From: Acidimicrobiia bacterium
GTDB lineage: Bacteria > Actinomycetota > Acidimicrobiia > Spongiisociales > Spongiisociaceae
Length of the DNA: 64,000 nt
Assembly (NCBI GenBank): GCA_009841075.1
Contig: VXMP01000075.1
Coordinates: 5,907 to 69,906, forward strand
Direction of reading: 5' to 3'
The notes under the pieces are model-generated. The model searched no databases and was not told the DNA's origin. It saw nothing but the letters and a program-made list of their open reading frames with translations. Positions 2,566 to 10,559 of the stretch are shown here, piece by piece. Both the position numbers and the translations under genes were made by a program. Position 1 is the stretch's first letter. Each line of letters begins with the position of its first letter.

Positions 2566-3795
2566 ATGGAAGGTTATGTCCCCCGCCTGGTAGACCGGCT
2601 TCTTGAGGAATACATCAAAGAAATCCCCGCCGTCATGGTGGTGGGTCCGCGCGCCTGTGGGAAAACCACCACCGCTCTCCGTCTTGTTCGTAGCGTGGTC
2701 CGGCTTGACTCGGATCAAGCCGCCTCGTTCCGGGCCGGGCCGGATGCGGCGCTACACGGGCGGGAAGAACCCGTACTGCTTGACGAGTGGCAGATGGTGC
2801 CGGAGGTGCTCGGTGCGGTCAAACGAGCCATAGACACCGACCGCCGACCCGGACGCTACCTTATCACCGGATCAGCCCGAACCGACCCGACCGACCGGCT
2901 CTGGCCACTAACCGGTCGGGCGGTAATGCTGCGTATGCACCCTCTGACGGTGGCCGAACAAGAGCATAGGCCCGTGCGCCCGCTGATCGACCGCATAGCG
3001 GAAGGCGAGGAGCCGGTAAAGGTCGAGGGGCCGCCAGTCGACCTGCGCGTCTATCTTCAGATCGCCTTAAAAGGTGGTTTCCCTGAGCCCGCCCTGAAGC
3101 TGAGCGAGTGGGCTGCCAGAGCTTGGCTCGAAAGCTACGCCGACCAGATCGCCCTAAGAGATTCCCGAACTCTCGGCAGCGAACCCGATGCCTACCGGCT
3201 GAAGCGCTACTTGGAGGCTTACGCCATCAACTCAGGACGGATAGTCCAACACAAGACGATCTACGACGCGGCCGGCATCAGCCGAAAGACCGCCTTGGCA
3301 TACGATGCCCTACTAAGCGACCTGATGGTCTTGAACGAGCTGCCGGCTTGGGCGACCAACCGACTCAAGCGGCTCAGCCGGGCTCCCAGGCGCTACCTGG
3401 TCGATTCTGGCCTGCTCGGGGGGATATTACGGGTCGGCATCGACGATGTAATGGCTAACGGCAACCTCCTCGGGACCATGATCGAGACGTTTGTGATAGC
3501 CCAGCTCCAGGCTCAAGCGGCTGTTTCGAGCACCCGCTATCGGCTTTCGCATCTACGGGAGCGCGACGGACGAAGGGAGGTGGACGTGATCGCAGAGTTG
3601 TCAGGAGGAAGGGTGATCGCCATAGAGATAAAGGCCGGGTCAAAGATCAGATCCTCCGATGCCCGACACCTATCGTGGTTGGGCGAGACCATGCAGGAAC
3701 GCTTCGTGGGCGGTGTAGTGCTGCATACCGGTCCCGACACCTACCGACTGGGTGATCGCATATTCGCCACTCCCATATCCACCCTGTGGGCTTAG
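2566..3795 (+). CDS. AAA+ ATPase, DUF4143 family (AAA_14 + DUF4143), paralog 1
   Basis: Walker A GPRACGKTT and Walker B LLDEWQ are present. The architecture is shared with the ORFs at 7238..8383 and 52788..54080. Confidence 0.85.
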   Translation: MEGYVPRLVDRLLEEYIKEIPAVMVVGPRACGKTTTALRLVRSVVRLDSDQAASFRAGPDAALHGREEPVLLDEWQMVPEVLGAVKRAIDTDRRPGRYLITGSARTDPTDRLWPLTGRAVMLRMHPLTVAEQEHRPVRPLIDRIAEGEEPVKVEGPPVDLRVYLQIALKGGFPEPALKLSEWAARAWLESYADQIALRDSRTLGSEPDAYRLKRYLEAYAINSGRIVQHKTIYDAAGISRKTALAYDALLSDLMVLNELPAWATNRLKRLSRAPRRYLVDSGLLGGILRVGIDDVMANGNLLGTMIETFVIAQLQAQAAVSSTRYRLSHLRERDGRREVDVIAELSGGRVIAIEIKAGSKIRSSDARHLSWLGETMQERFVGGVVLHTGPDTYRLGDRIFATPISTLWA

Positions 3796-5295: not shown

Positions 5296-6693
5296 GTGGC
5301 TGCCATGTCGTCGCGAGCGCTGATCTGGTTCAGAAGGGACTTGCGCCTAGGCGACAATCCCGCCTGGACGTCAGCCTGCACCCGCGATAAAGTCTCCGCA
5401 CTGGTAGTTCTCGAACCAACCCTGCCGGCGGCGGCGGGTCCCTACCGGCGGCGGGCTTATCTATCCGCCGTAGCCGGACTGGAACAAACCCTTCTTTCAA
5501 GAGGAGGCGGACTTAGGGTGTTGAAAGGAAACCCGGCCCGAGAAGTGCCCAAAGTGGCCGCCGAAGTGGGGGCCGAGGTAGTGGTGGTGAACTCGGACGT
5601 CACCCGCTGGTCGAAGCAGCGAGACAACCTGGTGAAAAGTCGGCTGGACATCCCGATGGAAACCCATTGGGGGACTCTGGTCCACCCACCCCGGTCGGTC
5701 CTCACCGCCGCCGGACGACTGTCCAGGGTATTCACCGCCTTCTACCGCCGGTGGATGGCGAAACCCTTGGATATCGAGGCACCTCCGCAACAAACGGAAA
5801 TCCTGGCCCCACCACCGGGGACGGCCCTGGCCGATGCCTATGGCCCCGATCTTCCACCCGCCTGGACCGAACGGCACGCCTGGGATCGCCTGGAACGATG
5901 GCTACCAGAAGCTGATCAATATCCCGAAAATCGGGACTTTCCGGCCAGGGATGCCACCTCCAAGCTATCGGCCGAGCTGCGATTCGGACTGTTGTCTCCC
6001 CGGGCGGTGATGGAGTCGGTAGGTGACCATACGCCGGGACGGGCCGCATACGTCCGGCAGCTGGCCTGGCGGGATTGGTTCGCCCATCTAACCTTCGAGA
6101 ACCCTGACATCGACCAGAAGTCACTTCGTCCCGAGTTCGACCAAATCCGCTGGGCTTCGGGTCCTGATGCCGACTCCGATTTCGAAGCCTGGCGCACCGG
6201 ACGTACCGGATTTCCCATAGTGGACGCGCCGATGCGGGAGTTGGCCGCAACCGGCCGGATGCACAACCGGCTACGGATGATCACCGCTTCCTTTCTTATC
6301 AAGGATCTGCTCATCGACTGGAGACGCGGAGAGCGCTGGTTCCGCAAAATGCTCATAGACGGCGACCTCCCCCAGAACTGCGGTAACTGGCAGTGGGTAG
6401 CCGGCGTCGGCCCTGACGCCGCCCCCTACTTCCGGATTTTCAACCCAATCAAGCAAAGCCACCGCTTCGACCCGAACGGTCACTACCTACGTAAATGGCT
6501 ACCGGAGCTGGCACTGCTCGACAACCGGGCCATCCACGCCCCCTGGGAAGCCAATCCATCCACCCTGGCAGCCGCCGACATTGTCCTCGGAACCACCTAT
6601 CCCCGGCCCATAGTGGATCATGCCGAAGCCCGAAAAGCAACCCTGCACGCCTACCGAAACGCCCTCCCCCACCGACCTCCTCGACGAACCTAA
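5296..6693 (+). CDS. phrB: Deoxyribodipyrimidine (CPD) photolyase
   Basis: GTG start. The N-terminus is ALIWFRRDLRLGDNPAW and the FAD-binding C-terminal block is GNWQWVAGVG...FRIFNPIKQ. Confidence 0.92.
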   Translation: MAAMSSRALIWFRRDLRLGDNPAWTSACTRDKVSALVVLEPTLPAAAGPYRRRAYLSAVAGLEQTLLSRGGGLRVLKGNPAREVPKVAAEVGAEVVVVNSDVTRWSKQRDNLVKSRLDIPMETHWGTLVHPPRSVLTAAGRLSRVFTAFYRRWMAKPLDIEAPPQQTEILAPPPGTALADAYGPDLPPAWTERHAWDRLERWLPEADQYPENRDFPARDATSKLSAELRFGLLSPRAVMESVGDHTPGRAAYVRQLAWRDWFAHLTFENPDIDQKSLRPEFDQIRWASGPDADSDFEAWRTGRTGFPIVDAPMRELAATGRMHNRLRMITASFLIKDLLIDWRRGERWFRKMLIDGDLPQNCGNWQWVAGVGPDAAPYFRIFNPIKQSHRFDPNGHYLRKWLPELALLDNRAIHAPWEANPSTLAAADIVLGTTYPRPIVDHAEARKATLHAYRNALPHRPPRRT

Positions 6694-6773
6694 GGTTCTA
6701 AAAGTGTCACCAATAACGTCCTCAACCTAAGCCTCAAGAAGGCACTAAGGAGTTCCCCCGCCGGCTGGCTTCC

Positions 6774-7145
6774 TCATCCACACATCCTCGCCGCATCCGA
6801 CCAATTCTCCACATCCGACGGTGCCTCCTCCCACATCCGCACGGAGGCTTCCGTCTGACGGGCGGCCGATTCCTGCAGCTGCTCCACCGTATCCGGCGGC
6901 CATTCCGTCATATCCGATCCATACGCCTCCCCCAACGACTGCTGGAACGCCAACTCGGCCTGAACGAGGTGATAGTCCTCACACCATGACATATCGTCCT
7001 CTGCCCCACAGGCAGCCGGCATCATCGCCGTCAACATCACCGCCGCCAACACCCTTACGGCGACCACCACCAAATCGCCCCCCTTCCTAACCTTCCCGGA
7101 AGTCCCCTCCTCAGGTGCTGAGGCTGTCATGCTGTCTCCCATCAC
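6774..7145 (-). CDS. Small putative lipoprotein (signal peptide + AAC lipobox)
   Basis: KVRKGGDLVVVAVRVLAAVMLTAMMPAACGAED; the start may be internal. The overlapping plus-strand ORF is proline-rich noise. Confidence 0.4.
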   Translation of the reverse strand: MMGDSMTASAPEEGTSGKVRKGGDLVVVAVRVLAAVMLTAMMPAACGAEDDMSWCEDYHLVQAELAFQQSLGEAYGSDMTEWPPDTVEQLQESAARQTEASVRMWEEAPSDVENWSDAARMCG

Positions 7146-7237
7146 TCAATAATGGCAATACCATAGCGACCGTACCCCACGCCAACCCTTCACCGGGAAG
7201 CAGCGAGGAATTACAACACCCCTCAACACGGAACCCT

Positions 7238-8383
7238 TCAAGGCCAGAGGCTGTCCTCCGCCAAAGCCTGATGGAAAGTTGCGAGCGGCCACACCTCAAT
7301 ACCCTCTCCCGTGCGAAAAGCGTGGGGGCCGGCGTAGACCAGGATTCGGCGGACCAACCCAGGCAGGTCGGCTATGGCCCGAAGCCCTTTGACCATCGAG
7401 GTGTGGTAACGGCGGGCGGATTTGACCTCGATGGCCAGGTGCTCACCGCCTCGGCTTAGAACGAAATCAACCTCGGTCTGAGACTGGGAGGGTGTCCAGT
7501 AGGCGATTTCCTCATACAAATTAAGATGATCGGAGTGGGCTCGAAGCGCGCCGAACACCCAACCCTCCAGGAGAGGCCCTCTTTCTTCGGCAACAACCGC
7601 TCCTGACCGCCGCTTGAGCGCCCGCACCAACCCCGGATCCACCCAATAAAGCTTCGGTCGGCGACGCTCTCGGATACGTAGTCTGGTGTCCAAGGCGGGT
7701 AGCCGGGTGGCGACCAGGGTGTCTTCCAGGATTTCCAGGTAACCGTTGACGGTGGACCGGGCTATACCGACGTCACGGGCTATACCGGCTGCGTTCAGGA
7801 CTTGAGTGTGCATCAAGGCGGCGATGGGCAGAAAACGGACGAATCCGGCCAGGTTACGAACTGCCGCCTCGGCCCTGATCTCTTCCCTTAGATAGAGCTG
7901 CGTGTAGCTCTCCAGCGTTTCGCGGCGGCTCTCAGAGTCCCAGATCAGAGCGATAGTTCCGTAACGGAGTACCTGATCAAGGTCGAAATCGTCGCCGAGT
8001 TCGTTGGCAGTCAGCGGATACATCAACCGGCGAACCGCTCGGCCGGCCAACAGGTTGGTTCCGGCCGTCTTCAGCCGGCGGGCACTTGATCCCAGCAGGG
8101 CAAATCTGGTACCCCGTTCCTCGATATGGCGATGTACCTCGTTGAGTAGTCCAGGGATCCGCTGTATCTCGTCCACAACTATCCAGCGGTCCGGCGGTTG
8201 CCCGGATACGATCCTCCCGAACAGGGCCGGATCGGCCAGTAAATCGGTATATAGGGTCTCGTCGAGAAGATCAAGACGAAGCGCACCAGGCAACGCGGTA
8301 CGCGCCCAGGTGCTCTTGCCCACCCCTCTTATGCCCAGCAAGAAAAAGCTTTTCTGTGGGATCTGCGCCAGCCTTGGGTACAT
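7238..8383 (-). CDS. AAA+ ATPase, DUF4143 family, paralog 2
   Basis: Walker A GIRGVGKST and Walker B VVDEIQ are present. It is divergent from the Fic gene. Confidence 0.85.
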   Translation of the reverse strand: MYPRLAQIPQKSFFLLGIRGVGKSTWARTALPGALRLDLLDETLYTDLLADPALFGRIVSGQPPDRWIVVDEIQRIPGLLNEVHRHIEERGTRFALLGSSARRLKTAGTNLLAGRAVRRLMYPLTANELGDDFDLDQVLRYGTIALIWDSESRRETLESYTQLYLREEIRAEAAVRNLAGFVRFLPIAALMHTQVLNAAGIARDVGIARSTVNGYLEILEDTLVATRLPALDTRLRIRERRRPKLYWVDPGLVRALKRRSGAVVAEERGPLLEGWVFGALRAHSDHLNLYEEIAYWTPSQSQTEVDFVLSRGGEHLAIEVKSARRYHTSMVKGLRAIADLPGLVRRILVYAGPHAFRTGEGIEVWPLATFHQALAEDSLWP

Positions 8384-8468
8384 TCTGTCGTCAAAAATAG
8401 CCGAAAAATGACGGCTGGCTATACATTTTTCACTGATTTCTGACGATAGCGGTCGGGGAAGCCATAAA

Positions 8469-9533
8469 TTGAAAGCCCAATTTTTCGGTATCCTATTGAA
8501 CGATTTGACGAACCTGACACCTGGCCCTCGAATCGGCCGGCCCAGCCACCTAGCGGTCTATCAACGACTGGATATCCAGATCCGGGAGTTCAACGTTTAT
8601 ATGAGAGGCCTACCCACCCCGATGGAAGCCCCGGATATCTGGGAGGAAATATTGCATTGGGAGACCCATCACTCCACCGCTATCGAGGGAAACCCGCTGA
8701 TTCTTTCCGAGGTGCAACAACTACTTGAAGAAGGTGGGGTGCCGGACAGCCAAAGCTCCAGGGACGACCTGGAAGTCTACGGATACGCAGAAGCCGCGGA
8801 ATGGGTATACGGGCATGCCGCACCTTCGTCGTCGTGGTCGGAGACCGAACCGCTCCTGACCCTGAACGATGTGCGAACGATCCATCACCTGGCTATGACG
8901 CCGATCAGGGAATTGAATCCCCAGCCGACCGCCGACGACCAGGAAACCCCCGGTTCCTATAGAAGGCACGATATCCGGTCCTTCCCCAACGGTATGACCC
9001 CCACCTCCTGGCAGGTCATCCCCGCAGAAATGGCCACCTGGATCGATCAGGCCAACTCCATCCGGCGCGACCACCCGAGGTTTCCGGCGCATCTGGCCGA
9101 CCTGCACTGCCGATTCGAACAAATCCACCCGTTCTTTGACGGTAACGGACGGACAGGTCGTTTGGCTCTCAACCTGATCCTGGTTCGGCTCGGCCTACCA
9201 CCGGCGATCATCCTGAAGCGGGACGGTGTTAAATATCTGCGTGCCCTGCAACGGGCCGACCGAGGCGAACCCGGCACCTTGGGCGGGATTGTGGCCCAGG
9301 CAATCATGGGCACCCTGCATCGACATTTGCTTCCCAAACTGGCCGCACCCGATCAGCTGGTCCCGCTCGAAGCCCTGGAAACCCCTGACATGAGCCTTAA
9401 TAATCTGAAGGTGGTGGCCACTCGGGGACGGATGCGAGCCCTTCGAGGCACCGATAACCAGTGGAGAGGCACCCGCAGCTGGGTGGACGAATATAAGGCC
9501 AGCCGCAAATACCGCGCCGGCCGCAAAAAATAA
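8469..9533 (+). CDS. Fic/Doc (Fido) family protein with an N-terminal inhibitory helix
   Basis: Canonical Fic motif HPFFDGNGRTGR. An upstream STAIEGN sequence matches the (S/T)xxxE(G/N) inhibitory motif. Confidence 0.9.
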   Translation: MKAQFFGILLNDLTNLTPGPRIGRPSHLAVYQRLDIQIREFNVYMRGLPTPMEAPDIWEEILHWETHHSTAIEGNPLILSEVQQLLEEGGVPDSQSSRDDLEVYGYAEAAEWVYGHAAPSSSWSETEPLLTLNDVRTIHHLAMTPIRELNPQPTADDQETPGSYRRHDIRSFPNGMTPTSWQVIPAEMATWIDQANSIRRDHPRFPAHLADLHCRFEQIHPFFDGNGRTGRLALNLILVRLGLPPAIILKRDGVKYLRALQRADRGEPGTLGGIVAQAIMGTLHRHLLPKLAAPDQLVPLEALETPDMSLNNLKVVATRGRMRALRGTDNQWRGTRSWVDEYKASRKYRAGRKK

Positions 9534-9594
9534 ATTTGTTTTGTTCTGATTATTTTCGGTCAAGGTGAACAAATTCGGCGGGTCGGGTGCCTGA

Positions 9595-10155
9595 TTGTTC
9601 GGTATCCTGTTAAACGTCTTGAGCAAACCATCCCCCTCACCAAGGCGCGGCCGTCCCACAAATCTTCAGATCTACGAGCGGCTGGCCACCCAGATACAGG
9701 AGCTCAACGAGCATTTGGGAGGTCTCCCTACTCCGATGGAAGCAGCAGATACCTGGAAAACCATATGGCATGGGGAGGTGCATCACTCGACTGCCATCGA
9801 AGGGAATACGCTGATCCAGAGTGAGGTGGAGGATCTGCTGGAACGTGGCATTGCGCGTGGCAATCGAGCACTGGTTGAGTATATGGAGGTCAAGGGATAC
9901 GCCGACGCTGCGGACTGGGTATATCAGCAGGCCTCGTCTTCTCCGCAAAGATCGGAAGCCGAACCGCTCTTGACCCTCGCCGATGTGCGGATGATCCATA
10001 AAACTAAGTCCCAACTTGCCTGTTCAACCGGGTTCATCCCAAAATCTCCAATTTCTTTTTCAGGCAACCCATACCGCGATTACCCTTCACACGATTGCAA
10101 TGGCCACAAAGCAGTTGCAGATTCTCAATATGATCCGTCCCGCCCTTCGCCTTAG
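9595..10155 (+). pseudogene. Truncated Fic paralog (N-terminal region only, including the inhibitory helix; no Fic catalytic motif)
   Basis: About 60% identity with the N-terminal 140 aa of the upstream Fic, including conserved 5' leader nucleotides. Similarity ends at ...LTLADVRMIH (about position 9995), after which the frame runs into unrelated sequence. Confidence 0.6.
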
Positions 10156-10274
10156 TTGGCGGGTTACCAAATCCAGCAGATCCGTGCGGGCCGTCTGTAG
10201 GGCTACCTCATGGCTAGGTGAGCTAGGCGTGGCTCTTATAGGTGTAGCGATGCCCGGGGTGCCGTATCGCGTGG

Positions 10275-10559
10275 CTAAGGCTTTTCCGTAGTGGGGTCGA
10301 TGATCTTGCCGATTTCGGTAACCACTGTGGCCGGAAAGCCGCTTCGTTCGGCATGCTCGTCGATCAATTCGGGGCTTTCGGTGACGTAGACGCAGAAGGT
10401 CTTGTCGCCGGCGACGTAGCTGTGCTCCCATTGGATGGGTTTGCCTTCCGACTGCATCGCCTTCAGAACCGAGTTGGATTGCCCGGCTGCGGCCCTCAGT
10501 TGATCTCGCTCGGCGGTTCCGATATCCGGAATGTCCCGTTCTATTACAAAGCGGCGCAT
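10275..10559 (-). CDS. DUF4242 (SCO4226-like, nickel-binding) small protein
   Basis: About 94 aa. MRRFVIERDIP...HSYVAGDKTFCVYVTESPE fits the DUF4242 pattern. Confidence 0.5.
   Translation of the reverse strand: MRRFVIERDIPDIGTAERDQLRAAAGQSNSVLKAMQSEGKPIQWEHSYVAGDKTFCVYVTESPELIDEHAERSGFPATVVTEIGKIIDPTTEKP

Follow-up and report, generated by a model that had tools for sequence, protein, structure and literature searches.

The intact Fic gene

The window, the whole 64-kb stretch of DNA analysed here, carries on its plus strand an intact, FICD/CccR-like Fic gene, Fic1, at 8505–9533, with a probable product of 342 amino acids. The mechanically called open reading frame (ORF) is longer, running from a TTG at 8469 to 9533 (354 amino acids). 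Most likely, however, the true start of Fic1 is the TTG at 8505, and that of the second copy described below the TTG at 9619; both codons are conserved and homologous to the ATG used in the family. In a related locus, L008, which shares synteny with the window and encodes a Fic1 that is 82% identical, the corresponding 'FGILLN' stretch is disrupted by a 1-nt deletion as well as an in-frame stop. We therefore take the equivalent stretch of the window (8469–8504), which is still in frame, to be non-coding leader.

Fic1 matches the Pfam Fic profile at 6.8e-18. Its active-site motif, HPFFDGNGRTGR (9126–9161, plus strand; residues 220–231), read directly, matches HxFx(D/E)GNGRxxR, and the columns of this motif are invariant in an alignment of 40 family members. 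Nearer the N-terminus, S69-T-A-I-E73-G74 (8673–8690, plus strand), likewise read directly, fits the (S/T)xxxE(G/N) inhibitory-helix motif; it stands in the context HHSTAIEGN, and STAIEGN lines up with FICD's inhibitory helix (YHTVAIEGN). An AlphaFold2 (AF2) model of Fic1 (pLDDT 80.5, pTM 0.83) places the motif at the end of a predicted helix, H55–71, ahead of H79–87. The closest solved relatives are FICD/HYPE (5e-18), and FICD also ranks top when the model is searched with Foldseek (TMq 0.56). PADLOC matches Fic1 to PDC-S04 and SoFic, and homologues of 99% and 82% identity each lie in a syntenic locus. The model also shows a small C-terminal domain of strands and helices (residues 298–352). 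When four C-termini of the family were searched with Pfam HTH_17, one member matched at E=0.025, with no match on Fic1 itself.

What defines class II Fic proteins is that the chain with the Fic core also carries an (S/T)xxxE(G/N) motif, on the N-terminal side of that core in a helix preceding helix alpha1 (PMC3667792). Judged by its motifs, Fic1 is such a protein: the complete active site and the N-terminal inhibitory motif lie in one chain, which bears out the class assigned in a preliminary description of this DNA. The same description also called the protein an active Fic. That wording fits less well, since Fic1 is not uninhibited: it has its own inhibitory motif, and its active site is predicted to be blocked in cis by its own N-terminal helix through E73. 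Class II AMP-transferases with an intramolecular inhibitory helix include human FICD/HYPE, SoFic, and BT_2513 (Engel 2012 classification, as given in PMC3667792). Like FICD, Fic1 combines a complete active-site motif with an inhibitory motif that matches TVAIEGN residue for residue, and its inhibitory glutamate is residue 73, coincidentally as in SoFic (E73). Unlike FICD, to which it is about 25% identical, it has a shorter N-terminal region, lacks a TPR or membrane anchor, and ends in a small, putatively winged-helix-like domain of about 60 residues.

The truncated copy downstream

Downstream of Fic1, at a distance of 61–85 nt, lies what is left of a paralogous Fic gene, its 5' part, which we call copy 2 (9619–9999, plus strand). 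Its mechanical ORF starts at a TTG at 9595 and extends to 10155 (186 amino acids). Copy 2 is homologous to residues 5–139 of Fic1, with 57% amino-acid identity in a gapless alignment (BLASTP, E=3e-49); the nucleotide-level alignment of the two copies proposed in the preliminary description gives about 68% identity. The retained part contains HHSTAIEGNTLIQSEV and an inhibitory-helix motif of its own, S65-T-A-I-E69-G70 (9787–9804, plus strand). Similarity to Fic1 ends after ...DVRMIH (nt 9999), and the whole catalytic core is missing. In a phylogenetic tree, copy 2 is sister to Fic1 together with the Fic1 of L008 (88% bootstrap). The identity to the Fic1 N-terminus and this sister placement confirm the earlier reading of a tandem truncated paralogue whose homology is lost ahead of the catalytic motif; its retained length is shorter than the roughly 140 codons given there, at about 135, or 127 from the probable start.

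The break falls in the middle of a helix, the equivalent of H132–149 in the AF2 model of Fic1, where there is no domain boundary. When the rest of the 64-kb window was searched with tblastn, no remnant of the lost Fic core came up, so we attribute the truncation to deletion and neither to a split gene nor to an inversion. Past the break, the ORF continues for 51 non-homologous codons (10000–10155, plus strand), apparently a fortuitous read-through into foreign DNA; six-frame translation of the window and database protein searches returned no homologue of this tail. The AF2 model of the copy 2 ORF has a pLDDT of 59 overall and below 50 for tail residues 146–186. Gene callers disagree on this DNA, predicting a 122-aa ORF, an antisense 120-aa ORF, or nothing at all.

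Despite its truncation, the retained sequence is typical of the family, with only 1 of 50 family-conserved columns broken. The loci for this test were recruited with Fic1, as a set recruited with copy 2 is biased by ascertainment.

Gene remnants around the truncated copy

Two further broken genes adjoin copy 2, so that three gene remnants lie within about 650 bp. On the minus strand at 10034–10153, six-frame translation and Pfam reveal what remains of an HNH nuclease gene, a stub of its C-terminal end (...KGGTDHIENLQLLCGHCNRVKGNRGMGCLKKKLEILG followed by the stop). It matches Pfam HNH (PF01844) at 31.7 bits, above the Pfam threshold, over profile positions 22–47 of 47 only, and has neither the N-terminal half of the motif nor a start codon. 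Its homologues are C-terminal pieces as well, one with a methyltransferase-like YPTQKP just before, and the stub is absent from L008. The last 51 codons of the copy 2 ORF are antisense to it.

The second is a frameshifted stub of a third, SoFic-like Fic gene, Fic441 (10153–10279, minus strand), which preserves residues 374–421 in two frames. In L008 this gene is intact, encodes 441 amino acids, and has its own SAQLEG motif. The stub is 79–85% identical to the L008 gene at the nucleotide level and carries a 7-nt insertion; 12 codon positions differ synonymously and 5 non-synonymously.

With PDC-S01 ATPases and SoFic/PDC-S04 matches nearby, the locus seems to sit in a defence-type islet subject to gene turnover. 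We also considered an AAA_14/DUF4143 ATPase as an obligate partner of the Fic family and rejected it, as just 5 of about 160 other loci contain it.

Relatives and family survey

The preliminary description suggested checking whether relatives conserve the truncated ORF as such. They do not: in L008, copy 2 is reduced to its leader and about 10 codons, and scans of genomes and metagenomes found a tandem N-terminal-only Fic partner in none of about 160 other family loci. At the DNA level, the scans of both collections recovered single full-length Fic genes only. In protein databases, copy 2 matches non-self sequences at 61–68% identity at best, and these belong to Fic genes that are either full-length or frameshifted in various ways. 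We considered whether N-terminal-only Fic proteins form a conserved family and rejected the idea, as the short matches are products of frameshifts or contig ends with varied break points, as expected if the frameshifts arose independently. A literature search on truncated or tandem Fic paralogues returned nothing relevant. Because no intermediate relative with a full-length copy 2 was found, the date of its truncation is only bounded.

Variation among six strains

The arrangement occurs in six strains or assemblies that are about 99% identical, a sample of little evolutionary depth. We used polymorphism within this species in place of dN/dS because synonymous sites are saturated between the copies and homologues (57–68% amino-acid identity). 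The preliminary description held that an antitoxin reading would fail if the copy carried multiple internal stops or frameshifts in related strains or if the glutamate of its motif was not conserved. Neither is the case: none of the six strains has an internal stop or frameshift in the 135 homologous codons, and the inhibitory glutamate, the start codon, and the leader are intact in each. The serine of the same motif is nonetheless variable. A TCG>TTG change at 9788 (S65L) in strains L001 and L006 turns STAIEG, seen in the other four, into LTAIEG. At 1–2% neutral divergence, moreover, the probability of finding no stop in copy 2 is 0.72–0.84, so an open frame is compatible with a young remnant.

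All three single-nucleotide polymorphisms (SNPs) in copy 2 are non-synonymous (K11Q, E36D, and S65L) and none is synonymous, compared with 14 synonymous and 5 non-synonymous SNPs in the intact neighbours (Fisher p=0.036, with only three SNPs in copy 2). The chance that all three would be non-synonymous is P=0.37 if copy 2 evolves neutrally and P=0.018 if it follows the ratio of its neighbours. Copy 2 also has a 6-nt deletion that takes out the GR of a conserved GRP, and in strain L169 a 7-nt deletion (10148–10154) abolishes its stop codon. This is weak to moderate evidence that selection on copy 2 is relaxed relative to its intact neighbours.

The two leaders

Both copies have a 5' leader, in agreement with the earlier claim that the leader was duplicated along with the gene. 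The intergenic region and leader of Fic1 (8384–8504, plus strand) contain an 8-bp inverted repeat, GAAAAATG (8403–8410) and CATTTTTC (8424–8431), together with a degenerate half-site of the leader element found across the family, TTCGGTATCC (8484–8493). The leader of copy 2 (9534–9618, plus strand) is itself a member of this family-wide element. Its inverted repeat, AATTTGTT (9533–9540) and AACAAATT (9568–9575), begins at the Fic1 stop codon and has a spacer of 27 nt (N27). The leader also holds a second pair, GAACAA (9567–9572) and TTGTTC (9595–9600), and at the start codon only a degenerate form of the expected arm is seen. Thus, in the window the leader repeat of Fic1 is degenerate and the leader of copy 2 retains one 8-bp pair. 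The arms of the copy 2 leader are identical in the L008 stub, where the surrounding spacer is merely 67% identical. Scans for sigma-70 promoters and terminators gave nothing informative, and a simple scan detected no terminator-like T-run.

Origin and possible roles of the truncated copy

We conclude, with a probability of roughly 80%, that the locus pairs an intact, self-inhibited Fic1 with the first third of an old duplicate behind it, this fragment being a recently truncated, decaying remnant among other broken genes and no new antitoxin. The decaying duplicate, offered in the preliminary description as the equal alternative, is thus the reading that we favour, on the strength of the adjoining remnants, the loss in L008, the lack of a like fragment in about 160 family loci, the SNP pattern, and the mid-helix break. 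Among the usual marks of a pseudogene remnant, copy 2 shows truncation away from a domain boundary, loss of essential residues, and relaxed selection, and does not show internal stops or frameshifts.

The history that we envisage would begin with a tandem duplication in the common ancestor with L008, which would have produced a second full-length Fic copy with its own leader; we place it there because of the tree and because the leader is retained in L008. Judging by its family-typical sequence, copy 2 would then have spent most of its existence under purifying selection. In the species of the window, recent deletions would have removed its 3' two-thirds, along with most of the adjacent HNH gene and most of the convergent SoFic-like Fic gene. 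We regard the truncation as recent because just one of the 50 conserved columns is violated and because the differences in the Fic441 stub are mostly synonymous. What was left would be a stub of 135 codons, extended by chance to the next stop through 51 further codons that lie antisense to the HNH remnant. This stub would now be drifting neutrally, its frame open merely for want of time, and it would serve no purpose for Fic1, a protein that can do without a partner. L008, the sister lineage, would have lost nearly all of this copy by deletion.

Several of these observations would equally be predicted by purifying selection acting on the fragment itself, namely the stop-free frame, the intact start, leader, and glutamate, and the family-like sequence. 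We therefore considered whether copy 2 could be expressed as an inhibitory module that acts in trans, with its glutamate entering the active site of a Fic, be it Fic1 or another. Its motif glutamate, ORF, start codon, and leader are intact in six of six strains, its sequence still keeps to the family consensus, and there is a precedent in Campylobacter fetus, in which one Fic bearing an inhibitory helix (C. fetus Fic1) neutralises its neighbour Fic2 in trans (PMC5651007). In that precedent, however, the neutralised toxin lacks the motif, whereas the Fic1 of the window already has its own inhibitory helix (E73), so it offers no free site for a helix in trans. The only other Fic in the vicinity, Fic441, is itself a stub, and its L008 version has its own SAQLEG. 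Class I antitoxins are encoded by small ORFs that directly precede, and usually overlap, the gene for a toxin without the motif (PMC3667792), and the known ones have about 55–80 amino acids (PMC5651007). Like VbhA and FicA/YhfG, copy 2 would carry an inhibitory motif on a polypeptide separate from an adjacent Fic core. Unlike them, it lies downstream and 61–85 nt away, its partner has its own motif, and its ORF of 178–186 amino acids is about three times larger, with one third of it a non-homologous tail. It is also confined to one species-level cluster, its motif serine is leucine in two of six strains, the fragment is cut mid-helix and runs into a 51-residue tail without predicted structure, and it is conserved neither in L008 nor in any other family locus. 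A trans-acting module is thus quite improbable, and the comparison with a free-standing FicA/VbhA-like module made in the preliminary description is not supported, in view of the inhibitory helix in Fic1 itself, the downstream position, the lack of conservation, the polymorphic serine, and a 3' end that is fortuitous HNH antisense. A variant, in which the stub is a newborn trans-regulator expressed from the retained leader and its 135-residue fragment heterodimerises with Fic1 or another Fic or donates the glutamate to it, seems to us very improbable. If a trans-regulator did exist here, it would capture a class I antitoxin as it emerges from a duplicated and truncated class II Fic, with inhibition passing from cis to trans.

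Alternatively, the DNA could be kept for a cis element, with the coding stub as a passenger: the copy 2 leader might offer a Fic-HTH repressor an additional operator or a decoy site, or might give the Fic1 transcript a structure at its 3' end. The arms of this leader match base for base between the window and L008 despite a spacer identity of 67%, in a lineage that lost the coding part, and the family leader element resembles the CccR operator (PMC9755527). Yet 8 bp conserved in two lineages can be chance, the leader of Fic1 itself has diverged from the arm sequence of copy 2, so that the C-terminal domain of Fic1 may or may not recognise that sequence, no terminator-like T-run was seen in the simple scan, and the idea accounts for the keeping of 9534–9618 and not of the 135 codons; we consider it unlikely. 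An assembly or binning artefact, such as a chimeric join or a collapsed repeat, might be suspected, as the source is a metagenome-assembled genome and the copies share short identical strings such as TTCGGTATCC. But the same arrangement and spacing are found in six independent assemblies from different projects, one of them a 2.43-Mb contig, with only SNP-level differences, and 68% nucleotide identity between the copies is too low for assembler collapse. Because of the six independent assemblies we treat the chance of an artefact as negligible.

On the favoured reading of a decaying duplicate, the locus is an ordinary class II Fic with a remnant beside it, in an islet with fast gene turnover in an Acidimicrobiia genome of the sponge-associated type, and matters little as such. 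It resembles ordinary pseudogene remnants in defence and toxin-antitoxin islands, with adjacent broken Fic, HNH, and SoFic-like Fic genes and a gene content that varies among close relatives; copy 2 is unusual only in retaining the regulatory helix. It does carry a caution, in that a remnant with a regulatory motif beside an intact paralogue can mimic a toxin-antitoxin pair.

The leader repeat in the Fic family

The leader inverted repeat, widespread in this actinobacterial Fic family, may be more useful, as it offers dozens of natural pairs of putative operator and protein. In most members the repeat lies directly upstream of the gene, with arms of 9–13 nt and spacers of 17–25 nt. CccR of Yersinia pseudotuberculosis, a class II Fic with a C-terminal HTH, represses its own expression through two 10-bp inverted repeats spaced 26 bp apart (PMC9755527). 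Like CccR, Fic1 is a class II Fic with a putative C-terminal DNA-binding domain, and its family has widely spaced inverted repeats upstream; unlike the CccR case, the repeat of Fic1 in the window is degenerate, and the C-terminal domains of CccR and the Fic1 family have no detectable sequence similarity. The family-wide repeat is probably a CccR-type autoregulatory operator, albeit a putative one, which suggests that CccR-type autorepression may be general among class II Fic-HTH proteins.

The element may instead act as an RNA hairpin. Strand-specific folding z-scores were -1.06 vs -0.85 (p=0.08), the count of G.T to A.C was 65:41 where a ratio of 1.24 is expected, and an Rfam search with the leaders of 14 loci and the window matched no family. 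Among 123 family leaders, the best inverted repeat scored 8 or more in 59%, compared with 11% of shuffles, and the repeat arms co-vary by lineage across the family.

Fic1 resembles an ordinary class II Fic enzyme

The intact Fic gene, Fic1, lies at 8469–9533 on the plus strand, a mechanical ORF of 354 aa with a Pfam Fic match (6.8e-18) over residues 130–238. It contains HPFFDGNGRTGR, which matches the canonical HxFx(D/E)GNGRxxR motif, and STAIEG at residues 69–74, which matches the (S/T)xxxE(G/N) inhibitory-helix signature (PMC3667792). The presence of both bears out the class-II-type assignment made in the preliminary description. Its closest solved relatives are FICD/HYPE (5e-18), with HHSTAIEGN aligned on YHTVAIEGN of FICD. 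In an AlphaFold model (pLDDT 80.5, pTM 0.83) the inhibitory motif sits at the end of helix H55–71, before the core helices, and a Foldseek search with Fic1 placed FICD at the top (TMq 0.56), followed by further class II proteins. As judged from sequence and predicted structure, Fic1 is a typical class II Fic protein that has its own inhibitory helix and, because it carries that helix, would be expected to be self-inhibited, by analogy with the biochemistry of the family. Gene callers report Fic1 as 310, 354, or 304 aa, depending on the assembly.

The downstream copy is a truncated tandem paralog

Copy 2, an ORF of 186 aa at 9595–10155 on the plus strand, matched no Pfam family. Its first 135 residues align without gaps to residues 5–139 of Fic1 at 57% identity (BLASTP, E=3e-49; ~68% at the nucleotide level), with the last homologous stretch, DVR(T/M)IH, ending at nt 9999. 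Homology to Fic1 is thus lost before the catalytic motif, as had been described, but the shared portion is 135 residues rather than about 140 codons. Searching the whole 64-kb window with tblastn, we found no remnant of the catalytic core of copy 2 elsewhere. The same tandem, with identical spacing, is present in six independent assemblies that are 99.0–99.75% identical to the window, including L001 (GCA_965243475.1, 2.43-Mb contig), L005–L007, and L169 (GCA_009843905.1), confirming that the arrangement is real and not an assembly artefact. The stub is called inconsistently in these strains, as a 122-aa ORF beginning at a TTG created by an S65L substitution in one assembly and replaced by a 120-aa antisense ORF in three others (L001 6001–6369; L005 9169–9531; L006 2154–2516; L007 5956–6318).

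The true starts are most likely TTG 8505 for Fic1 (342 aa) and TTG 9619 for copy 2 (178 aa), both homologous to the ATG of the conserved MSEH/MSEQ N-terminus of the family. In the relative L008, the stretch of Fic1 that would encode 'FGILLN' is interrupted by a 1-nt deletion and an in-frame stop and is therefore a non-coding leader. With the starts lying further 3', the earlier proposal that a 5' leader was duplicated along with the gene is correct.

Three gene remnants, copy 2 included, precede the next intact gene

The 650 bp from the start of copy 2 to the SCO4226-like gene (10275–10559, minus strand), the next intact gene, are made up of three gene remnants, copy 2 being the first, and contain three or more deletion joints. 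The second remnant, at 10034–10153 on the minus strand, is the C-terminal stub of an HNH nuclease reading ...KGGTDHIENLQLLCGHCNRVKGNRGMGCLKKKLEILG* (Pfam HNH, 31.7 bits, above threshold); it has no start codon and spans profile positions 22–47 of 47, the second half of the domain. Because this C-terminus is encoded on the minus strand, the 51 codons without homology at the end of the copy 2 ORF are antisense to it. Its database relatives are all C-terminal pieces of 31–67 aa, one directly preceded by YPTQKP (methyltransferase-like), and the stub is missing from L008. The third remnant (10153–10279, minus strand) holds residues 374–394 and 396–421, in two different frames, of Fic441, a SoFic-like Fic of 441 aa that is intact in L008 (5411–6736, minus strand). 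Compared with L008, 7 nt are inserted here in the window, and ~1.7 kb that includes the remainder of the gene has been lost.

Two paralogous AAA_14/DUF4143 ATPases, at 2566–3795 (plus strand) and 7238–8383 (minus strand), match PDC-S01, a PADLOC candidate defence family (1.5e-106 and 2e-54). Fic1 matches PDC-S04 (1.5e-23) and SoFic (4e-22), and L008 Fic441 matches SoFic (5e-39). Given these matches, the HNH stub, and the gene-content differences from L008, this part of the window has the appearance of a small, rapidly changing islet of the defence/TA type, a setting in which such gene remnants are common.

The truncated form is not conserved among relatives

DNA-level scans with the 135-residue fragment, covering one genome per species and the JGI metagenomes, recovered 160 loci, the closest of them 61% identical. 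By tblastn with Fic1, these contained essentially one full-length gene each, a handful frameshifted, along with one extra C-terminal fragment; none of the 160 had a tandem N-terminal Fic fragment. That C-terminal fragment (L016 2469–2891, residues 209–349) lies ~2 kb upstream of the full gene. At L002/L003, a frameshifted family member lies beside a convergent pair of Doc-like (141 aa) and NikA-like (65 aa) genes (6001–7036 and 7054–7673). We also considered a conserved N-terminal-only module among short protein matches, but these break at varied points past the 'IH' position, a pattern that frameshifts arising independently, together with contig ends, would produce.

L008, whose Fic1 is about 80–82% identical to that of the window (91% for the AAA_14/DUF4143 ATPase), shares the gene order of ATPase, Fic1, and then SCO4226-like gene, SLH protein, and RpiB. 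Downstream of its Fic1 are the copy 2 leader and ~10 codons, followed by the 3' end of the intact Fic441, so the tandem arose before the two lineages separated, and erosion in L008 was independent and more complete. In a tree of the 135 columns common to both copies, copy 2 branches as sister to the pair formed by Fic1 and its L008 counterpart (88% bootstrap), a position that identifies it as a true lineage-specific paralogue with no separate acquisition.

Copy 2 appears to have been truncated recently

All of the 114 family members are closer to copy 2 than to Fic1 (mean identity 0.554 versus 0.473), and copy 2 violates 1 of the 50 columns with 90% conservation or more, compared with 10 for Fic1 and a member mean of 1.26, in a family set that was recruited with Fic1 and is hence biased against copy 2. 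Intact Fic1 is itself the fast-evolving copy, in the top 1% of members for such violations; its departures are most notable at residues 88–104 (GGVPDSQSSRDDLEVYGY versus consensus GRAVGNKELREYLEVRGY), and comparison with its L008 orthologue gives 100 differing nt in non-synonymous and 68 in synonymous codons. Measured in the spacer, window and L008 show a neutral divergence of ~33%. In simulations, an unconstrained 135-codon ORF at 10% divergence stayed stop-free with P=0.21, and with less than 1% once indels were counted. Given this low survival and its undegraded sequence, the stub cannot have drifted for long.

Across six strains, however, copy 2 has 0 synonymous and 3 non-synonymous SNPs in 405 nt (K11Q, E36D, and S65L, the last replacing the Ser of its inhibitory motif in two strains), versus 14 synonymous and 5 non-synonymous in the intact ATPase, Fic1, and SCO4226-like genes (Fisher p=0.036, on small numbers). 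A 6-nt deletion in L001 removes GR of the conserved GRP, and a 7-nt deletion in L169 takes out the stop codon of the ORF. The variation present in copy 2 looks neutral, and, the stub being undegraded, we date the truncation as recent. The Fic441 stub differs from the intact L008 gene at 12 synonymous and 5 non-synonymous positions, indicating that selection acted on Fic441 until recently. These observations are most simply reconciled if copy 2 functioned as a full-length gene through most of its history and was cut only recently along with its neighbours.

A decaying duplicate is favored over a trans-acting inhibitor

Copy 2 had been proposed to be a free-standing inhibitory module like the antitoxins FicA and VbhA or, alternatively, a decaying duplicate. 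The patchwork of remnants, the erosion in L008, and the neutral-looking SNPs favor the latter, which we consider the best explanation (probability about 0.8). The ORF and inhibitory Glu of copy 2 are intact, as an antitoxin would require, but its likeness to FicA/VbhA goes no further than the motif. Class I antitoxins are encoded by small ORFs directly upstream of toxins that lack an inhibitory motif (PMC3667792), whereas copy 2 lies downstream of Fic1, is 3 times larger than known antitoxins, and is not conserved across relatives. Fic1, its only neighbour, would already have an occupied active site. There is precedent in C. fetus for class II Fic1 neutralising an adjacent Fic2 in trans via its inhibitory motif (PMC5651007); that Fic2 has no motif, whereas the Fic1 studied here does, and Fic441, the third Fic gene of L008, carries its own SAQLEG motif. 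Copy 2 also breaks midway through the helix corresponding to H132–149 in the Fic1 model, and its predicted fold is poor (pLDDT 59), with an unstructured tail. Position, motif-bearing partner, and non-conservation all run contrary to an antitoxin-like inhibitor, which we regard as very improbable.

A putative operator precedes most members of the Fic family

TTCGGTATCC in the window represents one half-site of an element that precedes most Fic family members, lying in the 110 nt before the Fic start (window 8478–8520 and 9533–9630; L010, L012, L013, L015, L028, L031, L047, L083, L089, and ~100 other loci). The element comprises one or, often, two tandem units, each with mutually reverse-complementary arms of 9–13 nt set 17–25 nt apart around a GTTCAATT-like core, and its 3' arm reaches up to or into the ribosome-binding site or start codon. 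Arm sequences are wholly different between lineages yet remain complementary (AAAGTGTTCGGT/ACCGAACACTTT, CAACTTGATGAG/CTCATCAAGTTG, GCGCTGTTGCTGT/ACAGCAACAGCAC, CTAGTTGATAAGT/ACTTATCAACTGG). The best inverted repeat scored at least 8 in 59% of 123 non-redundant leaders, compared with 11% of shuffles. The element matched no Rfam family, and strand asymmetry tests on the leaders did not separate RNA from DNA. CccR, a class II Fic protein whose C-terminal domain is an HTH, auto-represses via two 10-bp inverted repeats spaced 26 bp apart (PMC9755527). The element resembles this operator in geometry, and the small C-terminal domain of the Fic1 family shows a faint HTH_17 signal (E=0.025); the element is therefore most likely an autoregulatory operator.

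In the window, the element of Fic1 itself is degenerate, and the copy 2 leader retains one 8-bp pair (9533–9540/9568–9575), identical in the L008 stub. The divergent ATPase/Fic1 intergenic region also contains a perfect 8-bp inverted repeat, GAAAAATG-N13-CATTTTTC (8403–8431), which is partly conserved in L008 and may be a regulatory site for the ATPase or Fic1.
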